Part shown: positions 2,124-37,232 of the stretch, piece by piece
Layout of the letters: the number at the start of each line of letters is the position of its first letter
Numbering within the stretch: the stretch's first letter is position 1
Program-made: the position numbers and the translations under genes
Notes under the pieces: generated by a model
The model's database searches: none
Told to the model about the DNA's origin: nothing
Seen by the model: the letters and a program-made list of their open reading frames with translations, nothing else
DNA from: a virus
Lineage: Duplodnaviria; Heunggongvirae; Uroviricota; Caudoviricetes
IMG/VR virus record: IMGVR_UViG_2531839665_000022
DNA length: 37,232 nucleotides
Direction: 5' to 3' (one strand)

Positions 2124-2507
2124 TCAGTCACTGGTACCTCCTGTGGTGGTCTGGTCAGGTGCGGCGTGTGTCCTGTGGTATTTCCTGAACCAGTGGTACA
2201 GGGCAGCCAGTTTTCTGTCGATAACTTCAGTTTCCCTGTTGAAGTATTCCTGTGCCTCTTTCTCCTCTTGCGGCGGCAGTTCGCCCGGCCCACACAGGGT
2301 GTTGTAAATCCACGCCATGCCGTTCCTGGCATCACCGGTGGCCCGCCACTCAATCACTGCAGCTTTCATGACGACCAGATTGCGCCCGAAGTACAGGTCC
2401 ACCTCTTCAAATCTCTTGCGCAGGTATTCGTTTTCGTCTTCCAGTACCCGAATACGCTGTGCAGCATCTTCCGGCGTCAGTTGTGGCGTCTGTTCGGTGC
2501 GGTTCAT
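2124..2507 (-). CDS. hypothetical early protein
   Basis: 127-aa ORF with coiled-coil-like N-terminus in the early operon; no recognisable domain. Confidence 0.45.
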   Translation of the reverse strand: MNRTEQTPQLTPEDAAQRIRVLEDENEYLRKRFEEVDLYFGRNLVVMKAAVIEWRATGDARNGMAWIYNTLCGPGELPPQEEKEAQEYFNRETEVIDRKLAALYHWFRKYHRTHAAPDQTTTGGTSD

Positions 2508-2806
2508 ATGATTTCTCCGGTGTATGTGACGCCCAGCCGTGCGGCAAGGCGTTCCAGTTTTTTCTGTTTGTGGAAGTCAATCAGCCGGTCCATTCCCTGA
2601 AGGCGCAGCTGCTCTGTCATGATTTCCACGTCTGCCAGCTCTGCCGCGAGGTCACTTTCGCTGCCCTGTCCGTTCAGGTTGCGGGCGGCACTGGCCGCCA
2701 GTTCAGCGGCCTCTTCTGTCAGTTTCAGGGCCTGTGCGTCCGGCCCGAAACGCTGCAGGGCCAGACGGTAGAGGGCGGTGCGGGTGAGTTCGGTGTTCCG
2801 TGTCAT
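2504..2806 (-). CDS. MazG-like nucleotide pyrophosphohydrolase domain protein
   Basis: 100 aa with paired acidic motifs (LTEEAAELAA ... AAELADVEIMTEQL) typical of small phage MazG-like proteins. Confidence 0.5.
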   Translation of the reverse strand: MTRNTELTRTALYRLALQRFGPDAQALKLTEEAAELAASAARNLNGQGSESDLAAELADVEIMTEQLRLQGMDRLIDFHKQKKLERLAARLGVTYTGEII

Positions 2807-2815
2807 GCCGCGCCC

Positions 2816-3088
2816 TCAGTGTTTCCGGTCGACGGTGATGTTCAGGCCGCCTTCTGCAGTGGTTTCCACCCGGTACGGCACCTCGTGCTCTGCCGTGTGG
2901 GTGAGTGTGTTCATCAGTACCTGCAGGGCAGCCTCCTTTCCGTTGGTTGCCACAATGGCCTGCGTGGCCATGCTGATTAGCGCCGTCAGGACGTGCTTCA
3001 CATCGGTGAGGTCGCGGCATTCACACTCGTTGACATAGTGTTCAACAAGAGTTCGGGTGCGCTGTCGTGCTTCCTGTGGGGTAATCAT
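2816..3088 (-). CDS. hypothetical early protein
   Basis: 90-aa ORF, 4-bp overlap with the downstream gene; no recognisable domain. Confidence 0.4.
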   Translation of the reverse strand: MITPQEARQRTRTLVEHYVNECECRDLTDVKHVLTALISMATQAIVATNGKEAALQVLMNTLTHTAEHEVPYRVETTAEGGLNITVDRKH

Positions 3089-3279
3089 TGCGCGTCCTCC
3101 CTGTCAGGGCGGGAGAATTCCATGACGGGCACGTCCGCCGAAAAATGCTGGCTGCAGTACGGACAGACCAGGGTGACACGTACTGCAGGTACGTGGTACT
3201 TACCGGACATCACGGCGATGGCGCTGTGAAAACGCAGGGCTGTTATATCCCTCTCGCACTGAATACATTTAAATATCAT
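3085..3279 (-). CDS. zinc-ribbon-like small protein
   Basis: 64 aa with two Cys pairs (CIQCERD ... CPYCSQ) spaced like a zinc ribbon. Confidence 0.4.
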   Translation of the reverse strand: MIFKCIQCERDITALRFHSAIAVMSGKYHVPAVRVTLVCPYCSQHFSADVPVMEFSRPDREDAQ

Positions 3280-3376: not shown

Positions 3377-3907
3377 TTACTGCACATCCTGCTCAAAAGG
3401 AATTATTGAAAAATCCTCAATATCACTTTTTATGGTAATACCGGGAATATTTTTCACGGCGTCCTTTTCATTCAGGATAGCGTCTTTATTTATTTCCTCC
3501 TTTACACGGATAAAGCGCTCAAGCCCCAGACGTCTCAGTAATTCAATAACATTATCCGCCCCACGGATACTGACTGATGGCGGACGGTTTCGCCACTGCA
3601 CCTCGCCGGTGGTGAGGTTAGCGAACTTCACCTTCCCGTTGCCGGTCAGTTCATCACGGTGTGCCTCACACCATGTCTGAATACCGGACTGCAGTTCGGC
3701 CATGCGTTTTTTCAGGCTCTCGGTGAGCGGGGCATAACGTGCGGTGATATCGCCAATGGCGTCATTCATTTCTGTTTCAGCCCTGACCAGTTCACGGTGT
3801 GCGTCACCGAGCAGTCTGATGCCCTCAATGACCTCTTCACGTGTCCCCGGCACCCAGAGTGCTGCTGCGGCCTTGATACGTTTTGCACCTTTTGTACTTT
3901 TTGCCAT
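3377..3907 (-). CDS. gam: Gam-like host-nuclease inhibitor protein
   Basis: 176 aa, collinear with Mu Gam as I recall it: MAK..KRIK.AAA, TEMNDAI..IT, WCEA.RDELT..GKVK.ANL.TG.V.WR.RPPSVSIRG, LGL.RFIR.K.EINK.AIL, GIT.KS.IEDFSIIPFEQ. Confidence 0.85.
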   Translation of the reverse strand: MAKSTKGAKRIKAAAALWVPGTREEVIEGIRLLGDAHRELVRAETEMNDAIGDITARYAPLTESLKKRMAELQSGIQTWCEAHRDELTGNGKVKFANLTTGEVQWRNRPPSVSIRGADNVIELLRRLGLERFIRVKEEINKDAILNEKDAVKNIPGITIKSDIEDFSIIPFEQDVQ

Positions 3908-4206: not shown

Positions 4207-5400
4207 TTAAACCCCTTTGACAACGTCAGCGTTGACCTGTGGAACCCCGATTTCAGCGGCCAGATTCATGGCGGCTATTACCAGGTTACTGACGGCCAGC
4301 GGATACAGCAGGCTGACCCTGTTTTTACGATGACTTCCCGGATTGCTCAGGCGGGCACGTATGGCATCCACTGCGCCGGTGTCCATAATGTCCGTCAGTT
4401 GTTTACCGGCCCGTTGCAGTTTGAACGTCAGAAATTCTTCAAGGTGATTGTCCAGAGGCAGAAGTTCGACCACCTCACAGCGCTGAACGACTTCGCGGAC
4501 TTCCATGTTGCGTTCAGACAGTTTTGTCGCCAGTTCCGGCTGGCCAATCAGCACGATGGACAGCAGCTTTTTGAAACCGGACTCCAGCTCAAAAAAGCGT
4601 TTGAGGTGTTTCAGTGTCGGAATGGGCAGACTGTGAGCCTCCTCAATCACCAGAACGTGGCTGAACCCCGCCTGGTTGCTGTCTTTCAGGACGCGATGCA
4701 ACTGGCGAAAGCGGGCGTCCTGACTGCGTCTGATGCTTTCCAGTGGTGCGATGGTACTGATAATGGCTTCGGCAATCGCTGCTGCCTTCAGAGTTTTCCC
4801 TTTCACATCGTTGTCTTCCATAGCGATGATGTATGGCTCGATAACAATCACTGGCGCATTCTCGCGGTTGATACGTTCAGTCAGGTCACGGCGCAGCGTG
4901 GATTTACCCGCACCGGACTCACCGATGACGGCCATAAACCCACCATGACGGGCTGTCTGGTACAACGCCTCACGCACGTAGCGAATGTCTGGTGTGGTGA
5001 ACACATCATCAGAACCCTGCATGGCTTCGTCGGCGAACGGGTCACGGAAAAGACCAAACGCTTTTTTGGTTGCTGGAAATAACACCTGTTTTTTGAGTAA
5101 CATATTCTCTTCCTCACTGAGGCTCGTTTTATCTGTGGTACCCGCTGTACGGGGCGTGGCCGCGCCCTGTACAGCATCAAAACTCTTCGCTGTATCAATC
5201 CCCTGACTTTCCAGCCAGGACGCAAGACGCCGGCGCACTTCTCCGGGGCTGGTGCGGGGCCACGCGTTATGATTCACAATCTGGGCCAGCGTGGCCTCAG
5301 AAACATCGACAGCTCTCGCCACCACCGCCTGTGGAATACGGGCCTCTTTCAGTTGCTGCTTCAGTACCAGCATGTTTCCCTCCTCAGTTGCCGTTAACAA
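4207..5400 (-). CDS. AAA+ ATPase, Mu B-like transposition target-capture protein
   Basis: N-terminal HTH-like segment, Walker A (VIGESGAGKST), Walker B-like (HVLVIEEAHSL); lies immediately after the transposase gene with a 17-bp overlap. Confidence 0.75.
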   Translation of the reverse strand: MLTATEEGNMLVLKQQLKEARIPQAVVARAVDVSEATLAQIVNHNAWPRTSPGEVRRRLASWLESQGIDTAKSFDAVQGAATPRTAGTTDKTSLSEEENMLLKKQVLFPATKKAFGLFRDPFADEAMQGSDDVFTTPDIRYVREALYQTARHGGFMAVIGESGAGKSTLRRDLTERINRENAPVIVIEPYIIAMEDNDVKGKTLKAAAIAEAIISTIAPLESIRRSQDARFRQLHRVLKDSNQAGFSHVLVIEEAHSLPIPTLKHLKRFFELESGFKKLLSIVLIGQPELATKLSERNMEVREVVQRCEVVELLPLDNHLEEFLTFKLQRAGKQLTDIMDTGAVDAIRARLSNPGSHRKNRVSLLYPLAVSNLVIAAMNLAAEIGVPQVNADVVKGV

Positions 5401-7153
5401 TGCTGATAACGCTGCTGCGGGCCGGCGTGGTCAGCGTGGCCATGACTTCATCCAGTGCGGCTTCCGGTACGCCGTCCGGATACTGTGCCGTTAACTGGCG
5501 GTAATGTTCCGGCGTCCAGGTAAGGCCGTCGGCGCTGAACTTATCGCGCAGGGCTTTCGCGGCCTCCACATGAGTCATGGGACGTTGTTCAGTGCGCAGC
5601 CCGCGTACGTCAGAGGCCTGACCTCGCTTCGGTATACAGGCCGGAAGTGTGGCGTCATCAATATGTTTATATGGGTCAAGCCGCCCGCCGAACGGCAGCG
5701 CCTTCGCCTTGCGTGCGGCAGCTGCATCTGCGGCGTTGTCTGTACCGGTGACCAGCGCTTCGGTTTCTTTTGCCGCCATCTGCGCCGGGGTTTCCGGCAG
5801 GGCTTTGTAACTTTCGCCAAATACCGCCGCGCTTTCAGCAAAGCCAAACTCGTTCTTTCTGACCTCTTCGACCAGGAAGAACGCCTCGTGGCCGTCCTCA
5901 CCGGTCAGAACCACCTGTGCCACATCGCTGCGCCACGGGTTACGGGTAATCATCAGTTTTTCACCGACCAGTACGCCCGGTACCGTTGATACGTCAAATT
6001 CAGTGCCCCGGAACGAGACACGAAGTTTTGGCGTGACTTTGCGGAGTTCTGGTGTCGCCACAGCCAGTTCACGGCATACCTCAACGGAAGGCGCTTTTTT
6101 CAGCTGCTCAGCAGTAATCTTCAGCCAGATATCCGTGCGGGTTTTACCGTGGCGGCTGTGAACAGCCGTGGCGTTAAAGTGGCTGCGCCATTTCGCGGCC
6201 AGCGCGTTGAGTTCTTCCAGACTGTGAACCGGCCGGAACTTCAGACCCGGCTCCAGCTTGCGTTCGATAATGTCACGCGCCTTTTCCACCTGTCCGGTGG
6301 CGCGGGCGTTATGCGGCTTGTGTGCTATCAGGTCGATGCCCAGTGAGCGGCACATGTTTTTCGTCATACCCGCGGTGTTTGCCGAGCCGGGGTCGAGATA
6401 GAGTATTTTCGGCACGCCGTGCAGCACGTCTGCGCCGCCACGCTCCTGCATGGCGTTGATAAGCACAGAACACAGGTTCTCACCGGATTCCGCACCCGTC
6501 ACATACTCAACGTAAATCCAGCCGCTGGCATGGTCGGTAATCTCGTAACTCCACACGCGGTCACTGGCGATACAGGCAAGGTTAGCGGGCTTGTTCTTGT
6601 AGAACTTCGCGCTGTCCATCACCTGCAGTCCTTTGTGTCCATTACTCAGGTAGTAAAGCGTGCAGAGCGAGGCATCAATCTGCCAGACATGATTGGGATG
6701 CAGACTGGCCACTTCGGTATGCGGCGCAGGGGCATCCAGTTGTTCCGGGTGCAGGCCATAGTTACGCAGGGCTCGGCTGATGGCATCTTCGGACAACGGG
6801 AAAAACTCACCGGTGGTTTCATCTGTTCTGCCTGCGGAGATAAAGCCATTAGCCCGCAGGGTTTCCACTGCATCCGCGATGGAATAGAGACGCTTACCGT
6901 TCTTGCGGGTGGCCTCACGCAGTGTGGCAGATATCAGCGCGGCTTCGTCGCGGGTCAGGGCGCTGCGCCCGGCATCGGCGCGTTTTTTGCGTTTATCAGT
7001 CACAGAGACCTCCTTCAGCCTGCGCAGCAGAGTGGCGCGGGACATGCCAAGTTCAGCACAGGCAGCGTCGTATATTGCACCGCGTTTACCATGCCCCGCG
7101 TCACGTGCCGCGCGGGCGACATAAACCAGTCGTTCAGTCAGGGCAGCATTCAT
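5384..7153 (-). CDS. DDE transposase, Mu A-like (integrase-core fold)
   Basis: 589 aa; N-terminal HTH (MSRATLLRRLKEV), candidate catalytic residues in the HVWQIDAS and ILYLDPGSANTAG segments, followed by the B-like ATPase. Confidence 0.8.
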   Translation of the reverse strand: MNAALTERLVYVARAARDAGHGKRGAIYDAACAELGMSRATLLRRLKEVSVTDKRKKRADAGRSALTRDEAALISATLREATRKNGKRLYSIADAVETLRANGFISAGRTDETTGEFFPLSEDAISRALRNYGLHPEQLDAPAPHTEVASLHPNHVWQIDASLCTLYYLSNGHKGLQVMDSAKFYKNKPANLACIASDRVWSYEITDHASGWIYVEYVTGAESGENLCSVLINAMQERGGADVLHGVPKILYLDPGSANTAGMTKNMCRSLGIDLIAHKPHNARATGQVEKARDIIERKLEPGLKFRPVHSLEELNALAAKWRSHFNATAVHSRHGKTRTDIWLKITAEQLKKAPSVEVCRELAVATPELRKVTPKLRVSFRGTEFDVSTVPGVLVGEKLMITRNPWRSDVAQVVLTGEDGHEAFFLVEEVRKNEFGFAESAAVFGESYKALPETPAQMAAKETEALVTGTDNAADAAAARKAKALPFGGRLDPYKHIDDATLPACIPKRGQASDVRGLRTEQRPMTHVEAAKALRDKFSADGLTWTPEHYRQLTAQYPDGVPEAALDEVMATLTTPARSSVISIVNGN

Positions 7154-9174: not shown

Positions 9175-10182
9175 ATGTCTGAGCAGACCATTGAAGTTAA
9201 ACACGTTGTAGTTCACATTTTAGACAAACAACAAAATGGAGACGCTTCTGAGAGATTGAGTCCTGAAGAAGGTCTAGTTACTGAAGCCTCTCAGCGCCTT
9301 ATAAACGATATTTGTGCAAAATATGCAGGACGCACAGGTAAAGGTTATGGCTATTTTGAAGGCGATACGGATAACTATCCTATGGAACGAATGGCTGGGG
9401 ACTTTCTCGAAGGTGTTGATGATTTCTACCAAAGTTCCTGCCGAATGATGCATCACCTGACGGAACGTTCTCAGCGAGAAAACATGGCTACTGGTGGTTA
9501 TGTTCTTTTTGCAAATATCGTGATAGGACACAATGAACACCTGTTGATAGCTATTGTAAGCGCTACCATTGGGTCCACTGTCACAGATGATTTTAACATC
9601 CAAGATAGTACCTATCTTGATATTGCTAAGCTGCGTATGGCTGGGCGCATTGACTTAACCGCGTGGGAAAGTGGCGCAGAGCGCTATATCAGTTTTCTTA
9701 AGGGGCAAGGTAATGTTTCAAACTATTTTAAACAGTTCCTAGGCTGTAATGATGTCTTAATCGCCAAACGAGAGTCTGAAAAGTTACGTGACGTTTTAAA
9801 AGCATTTGCGGCAGAGAAAGGACTTGACGGCGCTGAAAAAGATGCATTTCTTAAGAGTGCGTTTGAACACTTACATGCACTAAGTAAGGCTGGTGAACCA
9901 CTTAGTCTTGAAACCCTTGTTAATGCCATTTGGCCCCAGGCTCCCGAGGAGTTATCTGGTAAACTTGCTGCTGAAGAGTTGGAGTTATCGGATGGCTTCG
10001 TTCCTGATGGTCGAGTCATTCGGGCTCTGGTATCTTTTAAAGGCAAGTCTAAATATTGGGAACTTAAGTTTGACCGGGAAGGGAAAACTGAAGGCTATAT
10101 TGATTATGATCCGGAAACAAATATTATCACCCTACGTAATGTACCTGAAGAATTTAGGGAAATGTGGATGACTGAGGTTTAA
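9175..10182 (+). CDS. NdpA/YejK-like nucleoid-associated protein homolog
   Basis: 335 aa, same length as E. coli YejK; collinear motifs as I recall YejK: (V/I)HxLDK near the N-terminus, GGYVLFANIV, and RIDLTAWESGAERYISFLKG...FKQFLG matching RIDLTEWE...RYLTFLKG...FFMDFLG. AT-rich codon usage unlike the flanking phage genes. Confidence 0.6.
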   Translation: MSEQTIEVKHVVVHILDKQQNGDASERLSPEEGLVTEASQRLINDICAKYAGRTGKGYGYFEGDTDNYPMERMAGDFLEGVDDFYQSSCRMMHHLTERSQRENMATGGYVLFANIVIGHNEHLLIAIVSATIGSTVTDDFNIQDSTYLDIAKLRMAGRIDLTAWESGAERYISFLKGQGNVSNYFKQFLGCNDVLIAKRESEKLRDVLKAFAAEKGLDGAEKDAFLKSAFEHLHALSKAGEPLSLETLVNAIWPQAPEELSGKLAAEELELSDGFVPDGRVIRALVSFKGKSKYWELKFDREGKTEGYIDYDPETNIITLRNVPEEFREMWMTEV

Positions 10183-31563: not shown

Positions 31564-31911
31564 ATGAAAACGACCTCAGTATTCTGGCAACCAGCTCTGC
31601 AGGCTCCCGGCGAAATCGTCCGGGGGCTGGATGATATCCGGCAGTCCATCCAGATCATCCTGCGGACTCCCCGCGGCAGCGACCCGCATCGCCCGGAGTT
31701 CGGCAGCAATCTGCACCTTTATATCGACTGGCCTGTCGGCCGGGCCATTCCGCATGTGGTTCGCGAATCCGTCGATGCCATCAGGCGCTGGGAACCCCGC
31801 TGCCAGCTTATGTCGGTTAAACCCGCCGTCGACGGCGAACATCTTACGCTCCGGGTGAGCTGGAAAGGCTCAGACGGACAACCCCGTACTCAGGAACTGC
31901 TATGGCGCTGA
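31564..31911 (+). CDS. baseplate wedge protein (GPW/gp25 family)
   Basis: 115 aa with the family signature RTPRGSDPHRPEFGSNL. Confidence 0.75.
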   Translation: MKTTSVFWQPALQAPGEIVRGLDDIRQSIQIILRTPRGSDPHRPEFGSNLHLYIDWPVGRAIPHVVRESVDAIRRWEPRCQLMSVKPAVDGEHLTLRVSWKGSDGQPRTQELLWR

Positions 31912-33005
31912 CAGAACCCGATTTTATTGAACGCGATGCCGATAAAATCACGGCAGAAATGATTGCGAAGTATGAAGCGGATACCGGAAAAACGCTGTAC
32001 CCGGCACAGGCTGAACGTCTGCTGATTGACCTGTGGGCCTATCGCGAAATGCTGGTCAGGGTGGCAGTACAGGAGGCGGCGAAGCAGAATCTGGTCGCTT
32101 TTTCCCGTGAGCCGATGATTGATTACCTCGGTGAACTGGTCGGTGTATACCGCCTTGCCGCGCAGCCTGCCACCACCACACTTCAGTTCTCTGTGGATGA
32201 GGCACTGGCCATTGATGTGCTGATCCCGGCAGGCACCCGCGTCAGCGCTTCCGACAGTATTATTTTTGCCACCGATACAGACGTGGTGCTGAAGGCCGGA
32301 TTGCTGCTGGTCAATGTCACGGCCACCTGTACCGAGCCGGGTACCGCTGGCAACGGCTGGCAACCGGCGCAGGTCAGTCAGTTACTCGATGAGATTGATA
32401 ACATTGACCTGCTGGTGACCAATCTGACGGCCAGCTCTGGCGGTTCAGAGCAGGAAGACGATGACCGGCTCCGGGAGCGTATCAGGCTGGCCCCGGAGTC
32501 ATTCACCAATGCCGGAAGCCGTGGTGCATACCGTTTTCATGCTATGGGGGCGCATCCCGGCATTGTCGACGTTGCTGTTCTTTCTCCCGCTCCCGGCACT
32601 GTCGAGCTGTATCCGCTGCTCAGCACTGGTCTGCCGGACAGCAGTATCCTCACTCTGGTAGAGAGTTTCTGTTCTGACGAAAAAGTCAGACCACTCACTG
32701 ATACCGTGCGGGCTAAAACACCTGTTCAGGTGGATTACACCATTGAAGCCAGGATTACGATCTATCGTGATCAGGATGCAAGGTTGGTAAAGGACAACGC
32801 TAACAGCGCCATACAGAACTGGGTGGCATCCCGTACCGCCACGCTGGGGCGCGATATTGTTCCCAGCCAGATTATCAGCGTGTTGTCCGTTTCCGGGGTG
32901 TACCAGGTCGAACTGGTGACACCGGCACTGAGGGTGGTGGCAGAAAACGAATGGGCAAACTGTACGGCGATCACTCTTAACATGACCGGGGTGTCCGATG
33001 GCTGA
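31902..33005 (+). CDS. baseplate J-like protein
   Basis: 367 aa, follows the gp25-like gene; size and order as in P2 J / Mu gp47. Confidence 0.75.
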   Translation: MALTEPDFIERDADKITAEMIAKYEADTGKTLYPAQAERLLIDLWAYREMLVRVAVQEAAKQNLVAFSREPMIDYLGELVGVYRLAAQPATTTLQFSVDEALAIDVLIPAGTRVSASDSIIFATDTDVVLKAGLLLVNVTATCTEPGTAGNGWQPAQVSQLLDEIDNIDLLVTNLTASSGGSEQEDDDRLRERIRLAPESFTNAGSRGAYRFHAMGAHPGIVDVAVLSPAPGTVELYPLLSTGLPDSSILTLVESFCSDEKVRPLTDTVRAKTPVQVDYTIEARITIYRDQDARLVKDNANSAIQNWVASRTATLGRDIVPSQIISVLSVSGVYQVELVTPALRVVAENEWANCTAITLNMTGVSDG

Positions 33006-33576
33006 GGTGCTACAACTCCCGCCACCGCTTGAGGGTGATATCAGTCTCAGAACGCTGGGAAGACTGGCCGGACGGCTGGATAACATCGACCTGAGCGTAC
33101 TGATGGTCGGTCTCGTCGATATTGTCGACAGTTCCGCGCTGCCATGGCTTGGCGAGCAGTTCTCGCTGTTCGGCGATGGCTGGGAACTGGCGGAATCGGA
33201 CGATGTACGCCGCATGCTTATCAAATCCGCTATCGAGCTACACCGCTATAAAGGAACACCGTGGTCAATCCGGGAAATTATCCGCCGTTTTGGCTTCGGC
33301 GAAGTGGATCTGATTGAAGGTACGGGGCAGATTGGCTATGACGGCAGACACACGTACAACGGGCTTTTCGTCCATGGTGATGCACAAGCCTGGGCAGTCT
33401 ATCGCGTCATCTTTCAACAACCCATCACTAACGATCAGGCGGCGCTGTTACGTCAGACGCTTGCTGCCTTTGCTCCGGCTCGCTGTCATCTGGCAAGTCT
33501 GGAATATCAGTCTGTCGCCATTCGATACAACAGTACTACCTGTTATGACGGTAGTTACAACCACGGGAGCAGTTAA
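32998..33576 (+). CDS. baseplate/tail protein (P2 gpI-like)
   Basis: 192 aa directly upstream of the tail fibre gene, overlapping the J-like gene by 8 bp. Confidence 0.65.
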   Translation: MAEVLQLPPPLEGDISLRTLGRLAGRLDNIDLSVLMVGLVDIVDSSALPWLGEQFSLFGDGWELAESDDVRRMLIKSAIELHRYKGTPWSIREIIRRFGFGEVDLIEGTGQIGYDGRHTYNGLFVHGDAQAWAVYRVIFQQPITNDQAALLRQTLAAFAPARCHLASLEYQSVAIRYNSTTCYDGSYNHGSS

Positions 33577-33578
33577 TT

Positions 33579-34502
33579 ATGGCAAATCTACCCGAAACCC
33601 CGCAGTGGGAAAGCGGCATCTACCAGATTGAGGTCTCTGACCCCGTTCTGGGCGGACCTGACGGAATTTCTAACCGCCAGGCTAAACAACTGGCCAGCCG
33701 AACGTCATACCTCAAACAGAAGGTCGAAAAAAGCGGAACAGACCTGGCTGCACATATCGCGGCAGTTGACCCGCATACCCAGTACGCGACGAAAGCCAGT
33801 CCGACATTCACCGGCACACCAACAGCACCTACACCTGCAAATGGTGATAACAGCAAAAAGCTGGCGACGACGGAGTTTGTGGCCAAAGCACTTGCGGCAC
33901 TTGCAGGCAGCGCCCCTGAGACACTGGATACGCTTAAAGAGCTGGCTGACGCTCTCGGTAATGATCCAAACTTTGCGACTACGGTACTGAACAAGCTGGC
34001 GGAAAAGCTGGCTAAAGACCAGAACGGCGCAGATATTCCTGAGCCTGCGCTGTTTGTCAAAAACCTTGGTTTGGGGGAAGGCTCAGCGCTGCCCGTTGGT
34101 GTGCCCGTTCCGTGGCCCTCAGCCACACCGCCAGCAGGGTGGCTGAAATGTAACGGCGCAGCATTTTCTTCTGAAATGTACCCCAATCTGGCAAAGGCTT
34201 ATCCTACAAATAAATTACCGGATTTACGGGGTGAGTTTATTCGCGGCTGGGATGACGGGCGGGGAATTGATTCAGGACGTACTCTACTTTCGTTACAGGG
34301 CGATATGTTTAAATCGCACAGTCATTACTTCCGTGAAATATGGGGTGCAAATGGACCAGATGGAACTGGTGGACCGTACATTGTCGGGGCGGATACAAAC
34401 GGTTCGAGAATAAATTTAGGCACTATAGAAACCAGTGCACCTGGTGGTTCAGAAACCCGTCCCCGTAACATTGCATTTAATTACATCGTAAGAGCCGTAT
34501 GA
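33579..34502 (+). CDS. tail fibre protein with exchangeable collar-domain tip (cassette 1 currently fused)
   Basis: 307 aa; N-terminal conserved fibre region; from codon about 165 it enters the repeated segment GEGSALPVGVPVPWPSATPPAGWLKCNGAAFSSEMYP...LPDLRGEFIRGWDDGRGID and ends with RPRNIAFNYIVRA (phage tail collar domain signature). Confidence 0.8.
   Translation: MANLPETPQWESGIYQIEVSDPVLGGPDGISNRQAKQLASRTSYLKQKVEKSGTDLAAHIAAVDPHTQYATKASPTFTGTPTAPTPANGDNSKKLATTEFVAKALAALAGSAPETLDTLKELADALGNDPNFATTVLNKLAEKLAKDQNGADIPEPALFVKNLGLGEGSALPVGVPVPWPSATPPAGWLKCNGAAFSSEMYPNLAKAYPTNKLPDLRGEFIRGWDDGRGIDSGRTLLSLQGDMFKSHSHYFREIWGANGPDGTGGPYIVGADTNGSRINLGTIETSAPGGSETRPRNIAFNYIVRAV
34054..34280 (+). repeat. 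cassette-1 recombination site plus shared 5' homology block
   Basis: 26-bp site TTGTCAAAAACCTTGGTTTGGGGGAA (34054-34079) with the perfect dyad AAACC-TT-GGTTT; left half resembles the hix/gix half-site consensus as I recall it; followed by about 200 bp nearly identical to three other copies. Confidence 0.6.
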
Positions 34503-34722
34503 AAACGTTGGTTTGGGGGAAGGCTCTGCACTGCCCGTTGGTGTGCCCGTTCCGTGGCCCTCAGCCACACCGCCAGCAGGGTGGCTGAAATGTAACGGTG
34601 CAGCATTTTCTTCTGAAATGTACCCCAAACTGGCAAAAGCCTACCCCGCGAATAAATTACCGGATTTACGGGGTGAGTTTATTCGCGGCTGGGATGACGG
34701 GCGGGGAATTGATTCAGGGCGT
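34496..34722 (+). repeat. cassette-2 recombination site plus shared 5' homology block (direct copy)
   Basis: Site CGTATGAAAACGTTGGTTTGGGGGAA (34496-34521), right half identical to site 1; overlaps the stop codon of the fused fibre gene. Confidence 0.55.
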
Positions 34723-35016
34723 TCCTTGCTTAATGCACAATCACATTCGGTTATAGATCATATTCACTATATGGAGTTATGGACTGGTGAAGGGCTTGCC
34801 GCAAATAGCACCCGTGCAGGAACAAACCCTGGTATACTGGCTACATACGGTGATGGCGGGATTGTTAAAACAGATGAGTCAGGTGTAAAAGTTCCATCTT
34901 CACTACGTGCTATTGGCACTCGTGGTGTTTATAGATTAGGTGCCAACGGAGGGAATACAGGAACGGAAAACCGCCCCCGTAATATTGCGTTTAACTATAT
35001 TGTAAGGGCTACTTAA
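34513..35016 (+). CDS. alternative tail-fibre tip cassette 2 (collar domain), not fused in this orientation
   Basis: 167 aa starting with the same about 70-aa segment as the fibre tip and ending RPRNIAFNYIVRAT, with a distinct middle; directly downstream of a hix-like site; no own RBS. Confidence 0.65.
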   Translation: MGEGSALPVGVPVPWPSATPPAGWLKCNGAAFSSEMYPKLAKAYPANKLPDLRGEFIRGWDDGRGIDSGRSLLNAQSHSVIDHIHYMELWTGEGLAANSTRAGTNPGILATYGDGGIVKTDESGVKVPSSLRAIGTRGVYRLGANGGNTGTENRPRNIAFNYIVRAT

Positions 35017-35633
35017 TGAATAATGCTGCTGCAGTACTTGATCAGAATGGTATCGCTATAACTGCAGGCGATATTACCGTTTATAACTACGATGCTGAAA
35101 ACCGTGAATATCTCTCTGCCACTGTTGAGTATCTCGCTTATGGTGTTGGAATTCCGGCTCACTCATGCATTGACGCGCCACCAGAAAAACGCCCCGGCTT
35201 CGCTGTCTGTCGTGATACCGACCAGAACATCTGGAAATATGTTCCAGACCACAGAGGCGAAACGGTTTACAGCACAGAGAATGGTAACGCTGTGCAAATC
35301 ACACAACCGGGAGATTACCCTCCTGATACGACGGTGAAACAGCCAGCTACTATCTATGATGTCTGGGATGGTGAGACCTGGGTGACAGATGCGGGACGAC
35401 AGCACGCAGCAGAACTGGAAGCTGCCGGAGCGCATCGTCAGCAACTTGAGGAACAGGCAATGGCATCTGTTGAGCTTATAAATCTCAAACTACGAGCCGG
35501 ACGCCGATTGACGCCCCAGGAGACGGAAAAACTAAACGCCGTGCTTGATTTCATAGATGTGCTTAATGCGACTGACATCAGCACTGCACCGGATATCAAC
35601 TGGCCGGAAATGCCTCTGGCAGCAGCCAGTTGA
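35016..35633 (+). CDS. tail fibre assembly protein (Mu U / P2 G-like)
   Basis: 205 aa; N-terminus MNNAAAVLDQNGIAITAGDITVYNYDAENREY typical of tail-fibre assembly chaperones. Confidence 0.7.
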   Translation: MNNAAAVLDQNGIAITAGDITVYNYDAENREYLSATVEYLAYGVGIPAHSCIDAPPEKRPGFAVCRDTDQNIWKYVPDHRGETVYSTENGNAVQITQPGDYPPDTTVKQPATIYDVWDGETWVTDAGRQHAAELEAAGAHRQQLEEQAMASVELINLKLRAGRRLTPQETEKLNAVLDFIDVLNATDISTAPDINWPEMPLAAAS

Positions 35634-35639
35634 ATATAA

Positions 35640-36116
35640 CTAAGCCGCCCTCACGATATAGTTAAATGCAATATTGCGGGGGCGGGTTTCACTACCACCT
35701 GTGTTACCAATACTTCCTCGTGAATGAAGCGTTGGTGATGGAGTCAAACTCCCTCCTGTATTTGTGGCATCAAGCCCCCTGCCTTGTGTATATGTTTTTT
35801 TGAAAATCGTAGCCAACTCCCATTCATCTTTTGTGTCATATCCATCGTTAGCTACAACAATATGGCGGTGTTTTTCCAACATCCCGTTTTGAATGCTCAA
35901 TAAAGCGCGTGCCGCATCAATTCCTCGCCCATCATCCCAGCCACGGATAAATTCTCCGCGTAAATCCGGTAATTTATTCGCGGGGTAGGCTTTTGCCAGT
36001 TTGGGGTACATTTCAGAAGAAAATGCTGCACCGTTACATTTCAGCCAGCCCGTTGGTGGTGTTGCTAAGGGCCACGGAACGGGCACACCAACGGGCAGTG
36101 CAGAGCCTTCCCCCAA
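35640..36116 (-). CDS. alternative tail-fibre tip cassette 3 (collar domain), inverted orientation
   Basis: 158 aa on the minus strand with the same shared N-terminal segment and C-terminal RPRNIAFNYIVRAA, distinct middle. Confidence 0.65.
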   Translation of the reverse strand: MGEGSALPVGVPVPWPLATPPTGWLKCNGAAFSSEMYPKLAKAYPANKLPDLRGEFIRGWDDGRGIDAARALLSIQNGMLEKHRHIVVANDGYDTKDEWELATIFKKTYTQGRGLDATNTGGSLTPSPTLHSRGSIGNTGGSETRPRNIAFNYIVRAA

Positions 36117-36133
36117 ACCAACGTTTCTATGCC
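35907..36133 (-). repeat. cassette-3 recombination site plus shared homology block (inverted copy)
   Basis: Reverse complement of 36108-36133 is GGCATAGAAACGTTGGTTTGGGGGAA; inverted relative to sites 1 and 2. Confidence 0.55.
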
Positions 36134-36588
36134 GCTCTTACGATGTAATTAAATGCAATATTACGCGGACGAGCTGATACATAAGCCCACCAGTCATATT
36201 TTTGTGCACCTTTACTGGATGCATCAAATATCCACTTTTTGCCATTTATGGCCCCCCATTGATTAGAGCTTAAAGTGTCACCAAATCCGTATTGTGTTGA
36301 GCTGAGTGAACTGATATCCCCAGTATCATTATCATCAAAACCGGAGACGATAGTGCCTTCCTGAAATGAAAGTATCTCTCGTCCTGCATCAATACCTCGT
36401 CCGTCATCCCAGCCACGAATAAACTCACCCCGTAAATCCGGTAATTTATTCGCGGGGTAGGCTTTTGCCAGTTTGGGGTACATTTCAGAAGAAAATGCTG
36501 CGCCGTTACATTTCAGCCACCCTGCTGGCGGTGTGGCTGAGGGCCACGGAACGGGCACACCAACGGGCAGCGCTGAGCCTTCCCCCAA
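36127..36588 (-). CDS. alternative tail-fibre tip cassette 4 (collar domain), inverted orientation
   Basis: 153 aa on the minus strand with the same shared N-terminal segment and C-terminal RPRNIAFNYIVRAA, distinct middle. Confidence 0.65.
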   Translation of the reverse strand: MGEGSALPVGVPVPWPSATPPAGWLKCNGAAFSSEMYPKLAKAYPANKLPDLRGEFIRGWDDGRGIDAGREILSFQEGTIVSGFDDNDTGDISSLSSTQYGFGDTLSSNQWGAINGKKWIFDASSKGAQKYDWWAYVSARPRNIAFNYIVRAA

Positions 36589-36605
36589 ACCAACGTTTTC
36601 GTCTT
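36379..36605 (-). repeat. cassette-4 recombination site plus shared homology block (inverted copy)
   Basis: Reverse complement of 36580-36605 is AAGACGAAAACGTTGGTTTGGGGGAA; inverted relative to sites 1 and 2; 55 bp upstream of the invertase gene. Confidence 0.55.
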
Positions 36606-36659
36606 AACTCCCACCTATACCAGCTATGTATTTTTAACAAAACAAAGAGGATATTTTTC

Positions 36660-37232
36660 ATGCAAATTGGCTACATTCGTGTGTCAACAAATGACCAGAA
36701 TACAGATTTACAACGAAACGCACTGAACTGCGCAGGATGTGAACTGATTTTTGAGGATAAAATCAGCGGAACAAAGTCAGCCCGACCGGGATTGAAAAAG
36801 CTGCTCAGAACGTTATCAGAAGGAGATACGCTCGTTGTCTGGAAGCTGGACAGGCTGGGCAGAAGCATGAAACACCTCATCACTCTTATTGAGGAACTGC
36901 GGGAAAAAGGGGTTAACTTCCGTAGTCTTACAGACAGCATTGATACGTCAACACCCATGGGACGTTTCTTTTTTCACGTCATGGGGGCTTTAGCGGAAAT
37001 GGAGCGTGAATTAATAGTTGAACGAACACTGGCCGGACTTGAAGCAGCACGTGCACAGGGGCGTATTGGTGGACGTCGTCCGAAACTGACAAAAGAGCAA
37101 CATGAACAAATAGCAAGGCTGATCAAAAATGGCTATAGCAGGAAACAGTTGGCAATTATTTACGATATCGGTATATCGACGATTTATCGTTATCACCCTG
37201 TAGAGGAACTTCAAACTCAAGCTGAGTTGTAA
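36660..37232 (+). CDS. serine-recombinase DNA invertase (Gin/Hin/Cin/Pin family)
   Basis: 190 aa from ATG 36660; N-terminal catalytic motif MQIGYIRVSTNDQNTDLQ with the conserved serine, resolvase-type core (VVWKLDRLGRS), C-terminal HTH (GYSRKQLAIIYDIGISTIYRY); adjacent to the cassette array. Confidence 0.9.
   Translation: MQIGYIRVSTNDQNTDLQRNALNCAGCELIFEDKISGTKSARPGLKKLLRTLSEGDTLVVWKLDRLGRSMKHLITLIEELREKGVNFRSLTDSIDTSTPMGRFFFHVMGALAEMERELIVERTLAGLEAARAQGRIGGRRPKLTKEQHEQIARLIKNGYSRKQLAIIYDIGISTIYRYHPVEELQTQAEL

Follow-up and report, generated by a model that had tools for sequence, protein, structure and literature searches.

The right end of a 37,232-nt stretch of viral DNA (IMG/VR record IMGVR_UViG_2531839665_000022, referred to here in its full length as the window) raises the question of whether its tail-fibre gene is fixed or can exchange its receptor-binding tip. 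The 307-aa fibre gene is accompanied by three more open reading frames which share its 3' half (34513-35016 on the plus strand, 35640-36116 and 36127-36588 on the minus strand). The region from 33579 to 37232 contains a constant fibre 5' part (Sc), four cassettes that lack their own start codon, one tail-fibre assembly gene (Tfa) and a complete serine invertase (Table 1). A first-pass annotation of this DNA, which was made from the letters alone and placed the open reading frames correctly, proposed a tip switch with four alternatives. The analysis gives a probability of about 90% that the region is a multiple DNA-inversion module of the Min/Pin/Gin type, which alters the receptor-binding fibre tip of a BcepMu/SalMu-like transposable phage.

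The proposed mechanism is as follows. Late transcription would read the single constant segment Sc, which ends inside a 26-bp gix-like site. The four cassettes have neither promoter nor start codon, and each begins with a TT core and the same right half-site. The adjacent serine invertase would recombine two sites of opposite orientation at their TT cores, and inversion of the intervening DNA would then place a different cassette in frame behind Sc. Rare deletion between direct sites would change the number of cassettes, and homologous exchange would scramble the repeated 5' parts of the cassettes.

The predicted fusion proteins were built by joining Sc residues 1-163 to each cassette, and were looked up as exact sequences in public assemblies. 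Sc-n is present in 33 contigs, Sc-c in 13, Sc-d in 21 (including E. coli 2014C-3075) and Sc-e in 49 (including E. coli A31). The claim that successive inversions can fuse any of the four tips to the constant N-terminus is therefore borne out, with all four exact fusions found. A breadth-first enumeration from the window arrangement gives 12 reachable isomers, with tip n fused in 4, e in 4, c in 2 and d in 2. The contig counts for n, c, d and e roughly follow the enumerated 4:2:2:4, which is illustrative only since the arrays differ in size. In the BLAST comparison of chimeric junctions with E. coli genomes, only matches in one piece were counted; rows listed as 100% covered in two pieces represent no fusion. 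The suggestion that tip c is never fused, as in the sampled loci, is ruled out by the 13 exact contigs, as clustering at 90% had hidden this fusion under the 167-aa cassette.

The clearest natural isomers are in the mouse E. coli strains DEF2, FEA3 and 3-72, which carry the prophage at one chromosomal locus with 100% identical flanks (2.1-3.6 kb compared). The cassettes of these strains are also 100% identical and only their order differs. With arrowheads for the direction of each cassette and T for Tfa, the order is >f>c[T+]<d<e in DEF2, >e>f>c[T+]<d in FEA3 and >e>c[T+]<d<f in 3-72. These orders interconvert by two inversions between opposed sites, as derived by hand. The cassettes keep their own single-nucleotide polymorphisms (SNPs), which begin at a distance of 21-39 nt on the right-hand side of the core, and the left half-sites, which differ at position -1, remain with the upstream DNA. 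Therefore, the exchanges are confined to the 22-40 bp that hold the core and are not spread along the 230 nt of homology. Inversion occurs naturally at this locus, with the exchange at the core.

The phage lineage of the window itself is found in other arrangements. E. coli A31 (locus L098) is 99.8% identical over 4.8 kb, with cassettes n, c, d and e 100% identical, and has the order >e>d[T-]<c<k<n. This order corresponds to inversion of the whole segment from site A to site D of the window arrangement plus one extra cassette (k). E. coli 2014C-3075 (L099) has two cassettes (>d[T-]<c), and E. coli M-17 has the order >n>e>b>c[T+]<d. Salmonella Typhi-like chromosomal loci with the exact invertase share an identical 6.6-kb right flank and have several cassette orders. 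The exact Sc-n protein precedes many different orders of 5-6 cassettes.

The crossover sites are defined as 26 bp, consisting of a 12-bp half-site, a 2-bp core and a second 12-bp half-site. The first-pass annotation described each cassette as opening with a hix/gix-like site of this length and a near-identical stretch, and repeat finding, alignment and site matching all agree with this description; the true cassette starts are now set at the first base past each core. Direct and inverted repeats of 219-265 nt with 82-96% identity connect the four starts. A 20-nt site pattern has 4 matches in the window compared to 0.01 expected by chance. The TT core and the right half-site (GGTTTGGGGGAA) are identical in all four sites. 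The left half-site varies with what lies upstream, which can be the final part of Sc, the closing codons and stop of the cassette before it, or the flank on the invertase side. In every locus examined the left half of site D adjoins the invertase gene; it reads AAGACGAAAACG, or AAGACTAAAACG in the P1-like elements L005 and L017. As had been stated, two sites are direct and two are inverted (A and B on the plus strand, C and D on the minus strand). The sites thus have the two imperfect 12-bp halves, identical 2-bp cores and inverted orientation of the Din family. The Mu gix site (TTATCCAAAACC TC GGTTTACAGGAA) is identical to site A at 20 of 26 positions (manual count) and lies at the same point of its fibre gene (Mu S ..NLGL..). 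Since the position is the same in Mu S, the site is homologous to gix and not merely similar to it. The core lies inside a Leu codon (CTT) and each cassette continues with GGT TTG GGG GAA; therefore, exchange at the core keeps the reading frame.

The invertase has Ser9 within the motif YIRVST and matches the Mu Gin structures 3UJ3/4M6F over its full length (E ~1e-90). Its identity is 75% to Mu Gin, 83-84% to e14 Pin and 96% to the invertase of a P1-like plasmid. The length of ~190 aa, Ser9 and a C-terminal helix-turn-helix point to a small serine recombinase of the Din family, in agreement with the Gin-family enzyme that was first suggested next to the cassettes. A 255-aa open reading frame (36465-37232, plus strand), which starts on the strand opposite to cassette e and continues into the frame of the invertase, was rejected as an open-frame artefact; the real ATG is at 36660, following AGAGGA.

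The recombinational enhancers of Hin, Gin and Cin sit in the 5' part of the invertase gene. Two 15-mers of the form G-N13-C occur in this part of the invertase gene of the window, and are candidate Fis sites by comparison with Hin and Gin. Both are at the Mu gin positions and each is identical to Mu at 14 of 15 bases (manual count), in a stretch that is conserved coding sequence anyway. Their spacing is 49 bp, compared to 48 bp in the literature. Inversion would presumably depend on Fis and this putative enhancer, and deletion between direct sites would presumably be suppressed.

Table 1. Features of the fibre switch and of selected other phage genes, with positions in the window
Feature	Coordinates	Strand	Remarks
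Fibre gene, 307 aa	33579-34502	+	Open reading frame; Sc plus cassette n
Sc, constant fibre 5' part	33579-34067	+	Codons 1-163; ends ...FVKNL at the crossover core
Site A	34054-34079	+	TTGTCAAAAACC TT GGTTTGGGGGAA; core 34066-34067
Cassette n	34068-34502	+	Now fused to Sc; Collar PF07484; HxH motif (SHSH)
Site B	34496-34521	+	CGTATGAAAACG TT GGTTTGGGGGAA; left half contains the stop codon of cassette n
Cassette c	34510-35016	+	Silent; without own start codon; stop overlaps the Tfa start (TAATG)
Tfa, tail-fibre assembly gene	35016-35633	+	Caudo_TAP PF02413; sole copy in the window, inside the invertible DNA
Cassette d	35640-36119	-	Silent; tail-to-tail with Tfa
Site C	36108-36133	-	Minus strand reads GGCATAGAAACG TT GGTTTGGGGGAA
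Cassette e	36127-36591	-	Silent; no HxH motif
Site D	36580-36605	-	Outer boundary; minus strand reads AAGACGAAAACG TT GGTTTGGGGGAA
Gin/Pin/Min-family serine DNA invertase	36660-37232	+	190 aa, complete; Resolvase and HTH_7
Candidate Fis-dependent recombinational enhancer	36681-36744	+	Two G-N13-C 15-mers, nt 22-36 and 71-85 of the invertase gene
Baseplate_J gene	31902-33005		Domain match; upstream of the fibre gene
Tail_P2_I gene	32998-33576		Domain match; upstream of the fibre gene
rve transposase	5384-7153	-	Early gene
AAA protein	4207-5400	-	Early gene
Gam	3377-3907	-	Early gene

Alternatively, most of the rearrangements could be the work of RecA, through homologous recombination of the ~230-nt inverted repeats, with the invertase incidental or inactive. 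The repeats are long and 92-96% identical, and homologous exchange does happen in them. The conserved 5' 204 nt of the cassettes (34068-34271, 34510-34713, 35916-36119 and 36388-36591, compared with L002, L007, L017 and L100) have about 10 times the synonymous divergence of the tips. Between orthologous cassettes, the synonymous divergence (dS) of the 5' repeat and of the tip is 0.39 vs 0.04 for c and 0.33 vs 0.018 for e. Since the 5' repeats also resemble those of other cassettes in their own array, this indicates gene conversion or mosaicism among paralogous 5' repeats. However, the exchanges in the mouse strains are all bounded by position -1 on the left and by the first SNP on the right of the core, and do not spread across 230 nt. 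In addition, the assembly collection lists the exact sequence of this intact invertase in 9580 blocks, and all four sites have the same core, which is a requirement of serine invertases. Deletion of gin also abolishes switching at the related locus of Enterobacter phage FRφ (PMC13418256). RecA as the main source of the rearrangements is very improbable.

The four-way alignment of the cassettes has a near-invariant first ~230 nt, a middle that cannot be aligned, and a conserved 3' end which encodes RPRNIAFNYIVRA, so the common end motif around a variable middle is seen as it was described. All four cassette reading frames match Pfam Collar PF07484. Cassette n is homologous to the T4 gp37 tip 2XGF (E 8e-17) and to 9CUY_c, a chain named 'short tail fiber' (E 1e-19). 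The alignment to 2XGF spans the collar, the HxH motifs and the C-terminal ..NIAFNYIVR, and the T4 gp12 collar is matched as well. The cassettes resemble the distal tip of gp37 and the gp12 collar in their collar, HxH motifs and ..NIAFNYIVR strand, but they are far shorter (about 145-170 aa) and cassette e is without HxH. These homologies suggest that the cassettes are collar fibre tips of the gp37/gp12 type. By this homology, the chain would exit the collar, build the distal part and return via the RPRNIAFNYIVRA strand, with the variable middle as the exposed end, which fits a receptor-binding role. A change in host range would be the expected result of exchanging it.

The HxH motif, which in T4 gp37 is associated with the metal-binding needle, is found in cassettes n (SHSH, 34300-34330), c (DHIH, 34745-34770) and d (KHRH, 35830-35850, minus strand). 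It is absent from cassette e and also from types k, f and b elsewhere. This suggests that one array holds two structural classes of tip, with and without HxH.

The silent cassettes might instead be decaying duplications in a fixed arrangement, the outcome that the first-pass annotation had named as the refutation of its proposal. The window itself shows one arrangement only, and truncated cassettes occur in some relatives (L001, L009 and L011). However, all four cassettes are intact in the window. The ratio of nonsynonymous to synonymous divergence (dN/dS) between orthologous cassettes across elements is 0.03-0.19 wherever more than a few substitutions could be compared, and 0.03-0.12 for cassette d; therefore, the silent cassettes are under purifying selection and are not decaying copies. 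Decay in a fixed arrangement is also contradicted already by the exact occurrence of each predicted fusion and by the many alternative orders, and is highly improbable. Equally hard to credit is that the cassettes are separate small tail proteins read from their own TTG starts, as in the public annotation 'phage tail protein' and in the coding sequences of 153-167 aa called by annotation pipelines, since the TTG sits within the recombination site with no obvious Shine-Dalgarno sequence ahead of it (visual inspection), the products would be without a part for baseplate attachment, and the frame is continuous from Sc through the site with a full-length fusion known for each cassette.

The position of the single Tfa gene inside the invertible DNA is an addition to what the first-pass annotation emphasized. 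The unit c-Tfa-d' (34510-36119) is unbroken in every interpretable SalMu-type locus classified. Since this unit is constant, Tfa inverts along with c and d, and 6 of the 12 isomers have it antisense to the fibre gene. When tip c is fused, Tfa is always directly downstream with the overlapping TAATG, and when tip d is fused Tfa is always antisense. When n or e is fused, Tfa can have either orientation and is in the sense direction in only half of the states. A promoter scan found no σ70-like promoter for expression of inverted Tfa; therefore, the antisense states may yield defective fibres. Either most tips can do without a Tfa of their own, or there is another route to Tfa expression, or half of the states make poor fibres. 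A tentative joint proposal, for which the odds are somewhat worse than even, has two parts. The first is that most collar tips need no Tfa of their own to fold, c and Tfa being a composite tip, or that Tfa expression does not depend on orientation. The second is that a tip pool extends across Mu-like prophages, P1-like plasmids and e14-like elements that share one cell, by way of shared sites and mosaic repeats.

Several points weigh against an invertase-driven switch of functional tips. The Tfa-antisense states, which include all states with tip d, may be the defective ones. The isomers are deduced by comparing separate assemblies, and some of these may represent a consensus of mixed populations. 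The mosaic 5' repeats mean that homologous recombination acts here too, and some of the rearrangements need not have been made by the invertase. The putative enhancer is a positional match only, inside conserved coding sequence.

The first-pass annotation treated four tips as distinctive of this locus. This does not hold, since one phage lineage (99.5-99.8% identical, with identical cassettes) has 2, 4, 5 or 6 cassettes (L098, L099, L011, L012 and L101 compared with the window), and the arrays of relatives overall have 2-9 sites or cassettes. Cassette k is present in A31 and absent from the window, which a deletion between two direct sites would explain. If k was lost in this way, the filter that suppresses deletion would not be complete on an evolutionary time scale. 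Some assemblies hold cassettes that are truncated or frameshifted, whether fused to Sc or not (L001 from E. coli JB2 at 2456-3136, L009, L013 and L015; L011 also has a truncated cassette). They may reflect genuine decay, or errors in a consensus of mixed isomers.

Cassettes are also shared between different kinds of element. The Salmonella P1-like plasmid pFSIS11814474-2 (L017, 2153-7193) has nine sites, nine cassettes and one central Tfa, and its invertase shares 96% identity with that of the window. Its cassette types d (96%), j (94%) and f (89%) are common to Mu-like arrays. This points to a tip pool common to different mobile elements. A survey of species representatives gave mostly single pairs of a cassette and Tfa, and little on arrays. 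The idea of recombination-driven diversification is upheld in part: the gene-converted 5' repeats and the sharing of whole cassettes between elements agree with it, but the data do not show that the variable centres diversify.

Min-type systems have been known since about 1990. The Min multiple-inversion system of plasmid p15B and of P1-like phage-plasmids was reportedly described by Sandmeier, Iida and Arber in 1990-92. Like the window, Min has a Din-family serine invertase, many sites in both orientations inside the 3' end of a fibre gene, one constant 5' part and several alternative 3' cassettes. The P1-like plasmid, with its 96%-identical invertase and the same cassette build, served as the stand-in for Min of p15B (X62121). 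The nine-cassette array of the plasmid and its shared types d, j and f make the earlier comparison with p15B an apt one. A Min-type system has more than two sites, overlapping segments and more than two fibre 3' ends; the window has four sites, 12 isomers and four tips. The P1-like element differs in being hosted by a plasmid and not by a transposable BcepMu/SalMu-like prophage, in having nine cassettes instead of four, and in its constant fibre part and site A (TTCTTGATTACC there, TTGTCAAAAACC here).

The Mu G segment with Gin and the P1 C segment with Cin have a homologous invertase and a homologous 26-bp site at the same fibre point. The invertase gene adjoins the outer site in these systems as well, with a probable enhancer in its 5' end, for which the window has a candidate. 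However, the Mu G and P1 C systems have two sites, two tips and one Tfa per tip, compared to four sites, four tips and a single Tfa here, and their tips are of the Mu S type whereas those of the window are of the gp37/collar type. The locus is thus not a two-state system like Mu G, and the two-cassette derivative in E. coli 2014C-3075 has a single Tfa as well. In Erwinia tracheiphila, a collar cassette and Tfa face a second Tfa and cassette, in an arrangement like that of Mu G. The P segment of e14 in E. coli K-12, which is inverted by Pin, shares the right half-site GGTTTGGGAGAA, and one of its two cassettes is a collar cassette followed by Tfa, as in the window. It differs in having only two sites and in its second cassette, which is of an unrelated type.

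Phage FRφ has a fibre locus with three isoforms, which was locked by the gin deletion, and one isoform alone infects the tested host; related loci have up to six paralogues (PMC13418256). A P2-like prophage of enteropathogenic E. coli (EPEC) has a fibre switch with three repeats and four variants, shown by PCR, and a Hin-family invertase (PMC4272514). Both are experimentally backed and, like the window, have more than two tips in a prophage fibre gene. They differ in phage backbone, and the likeness is drawn from their published descriptions. The R64 shufflon, to which the locus had also been compared, follows the same logic of a constant 5' part with several invertible 3' cassettes. The comparison stands for function but not for mechanism, since the shufflon uses the tyrosine recombinase Rci, sfx sites and the pilus adhesin gene pilV, whereas the recombinase here is a serine resolvase/invertase and the target is a phage fibre gene. 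The mechanism adds little that is new, as the principle and close relatives are already described (p15B Min, the EPEC prophage and FRφ).

The significance of the locus is that a common transposable prophage of E. coli and Salmonella carries a working switch with several tips, which would presumably change its host range. Assemblies of carrier strains record an arbitrary isomer, and the silent cassettes are misleadingly annotated as separate phage tail proteins. Prediction of host range for such phages must weigh every cassette. Together, the cassettes form a ready-made library of small gp37-like tips, which could be swapped in engineered phages or tailocins. The question of Tfa and the cassette pool across elements are the parts that are worth experiment.

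The window as a whole is a transposable phage of the BcepMu/SalMu type, with the switch at the right end of the prophage. The early genes are on the minus strand, and the late genes, including a Mu-type portal, are on the plus strand. Escherichia phage PhiKM has 95.7% identity to the first 25 kb of the window over the 84% that aligns. Sc residues 137-167 match the Mu fibre protein S (5YVQ/8JU3). A full-length homologue of NA37, a 37-kDa nucleoid-associated protein, is encoded at 9175-10182 on the plus strand (Pfam E 1e-80), just downstream of the divergent early/late boundary. The host genes interrupted by the prophage vary by strain and include a SWIM zinc-finger gene, a methyltransferase gene and otsA; it is also found beside hycI (right flanks of L002-L004 and L098-L100). 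This variety of insertion genes is as expected of a transposable phage.

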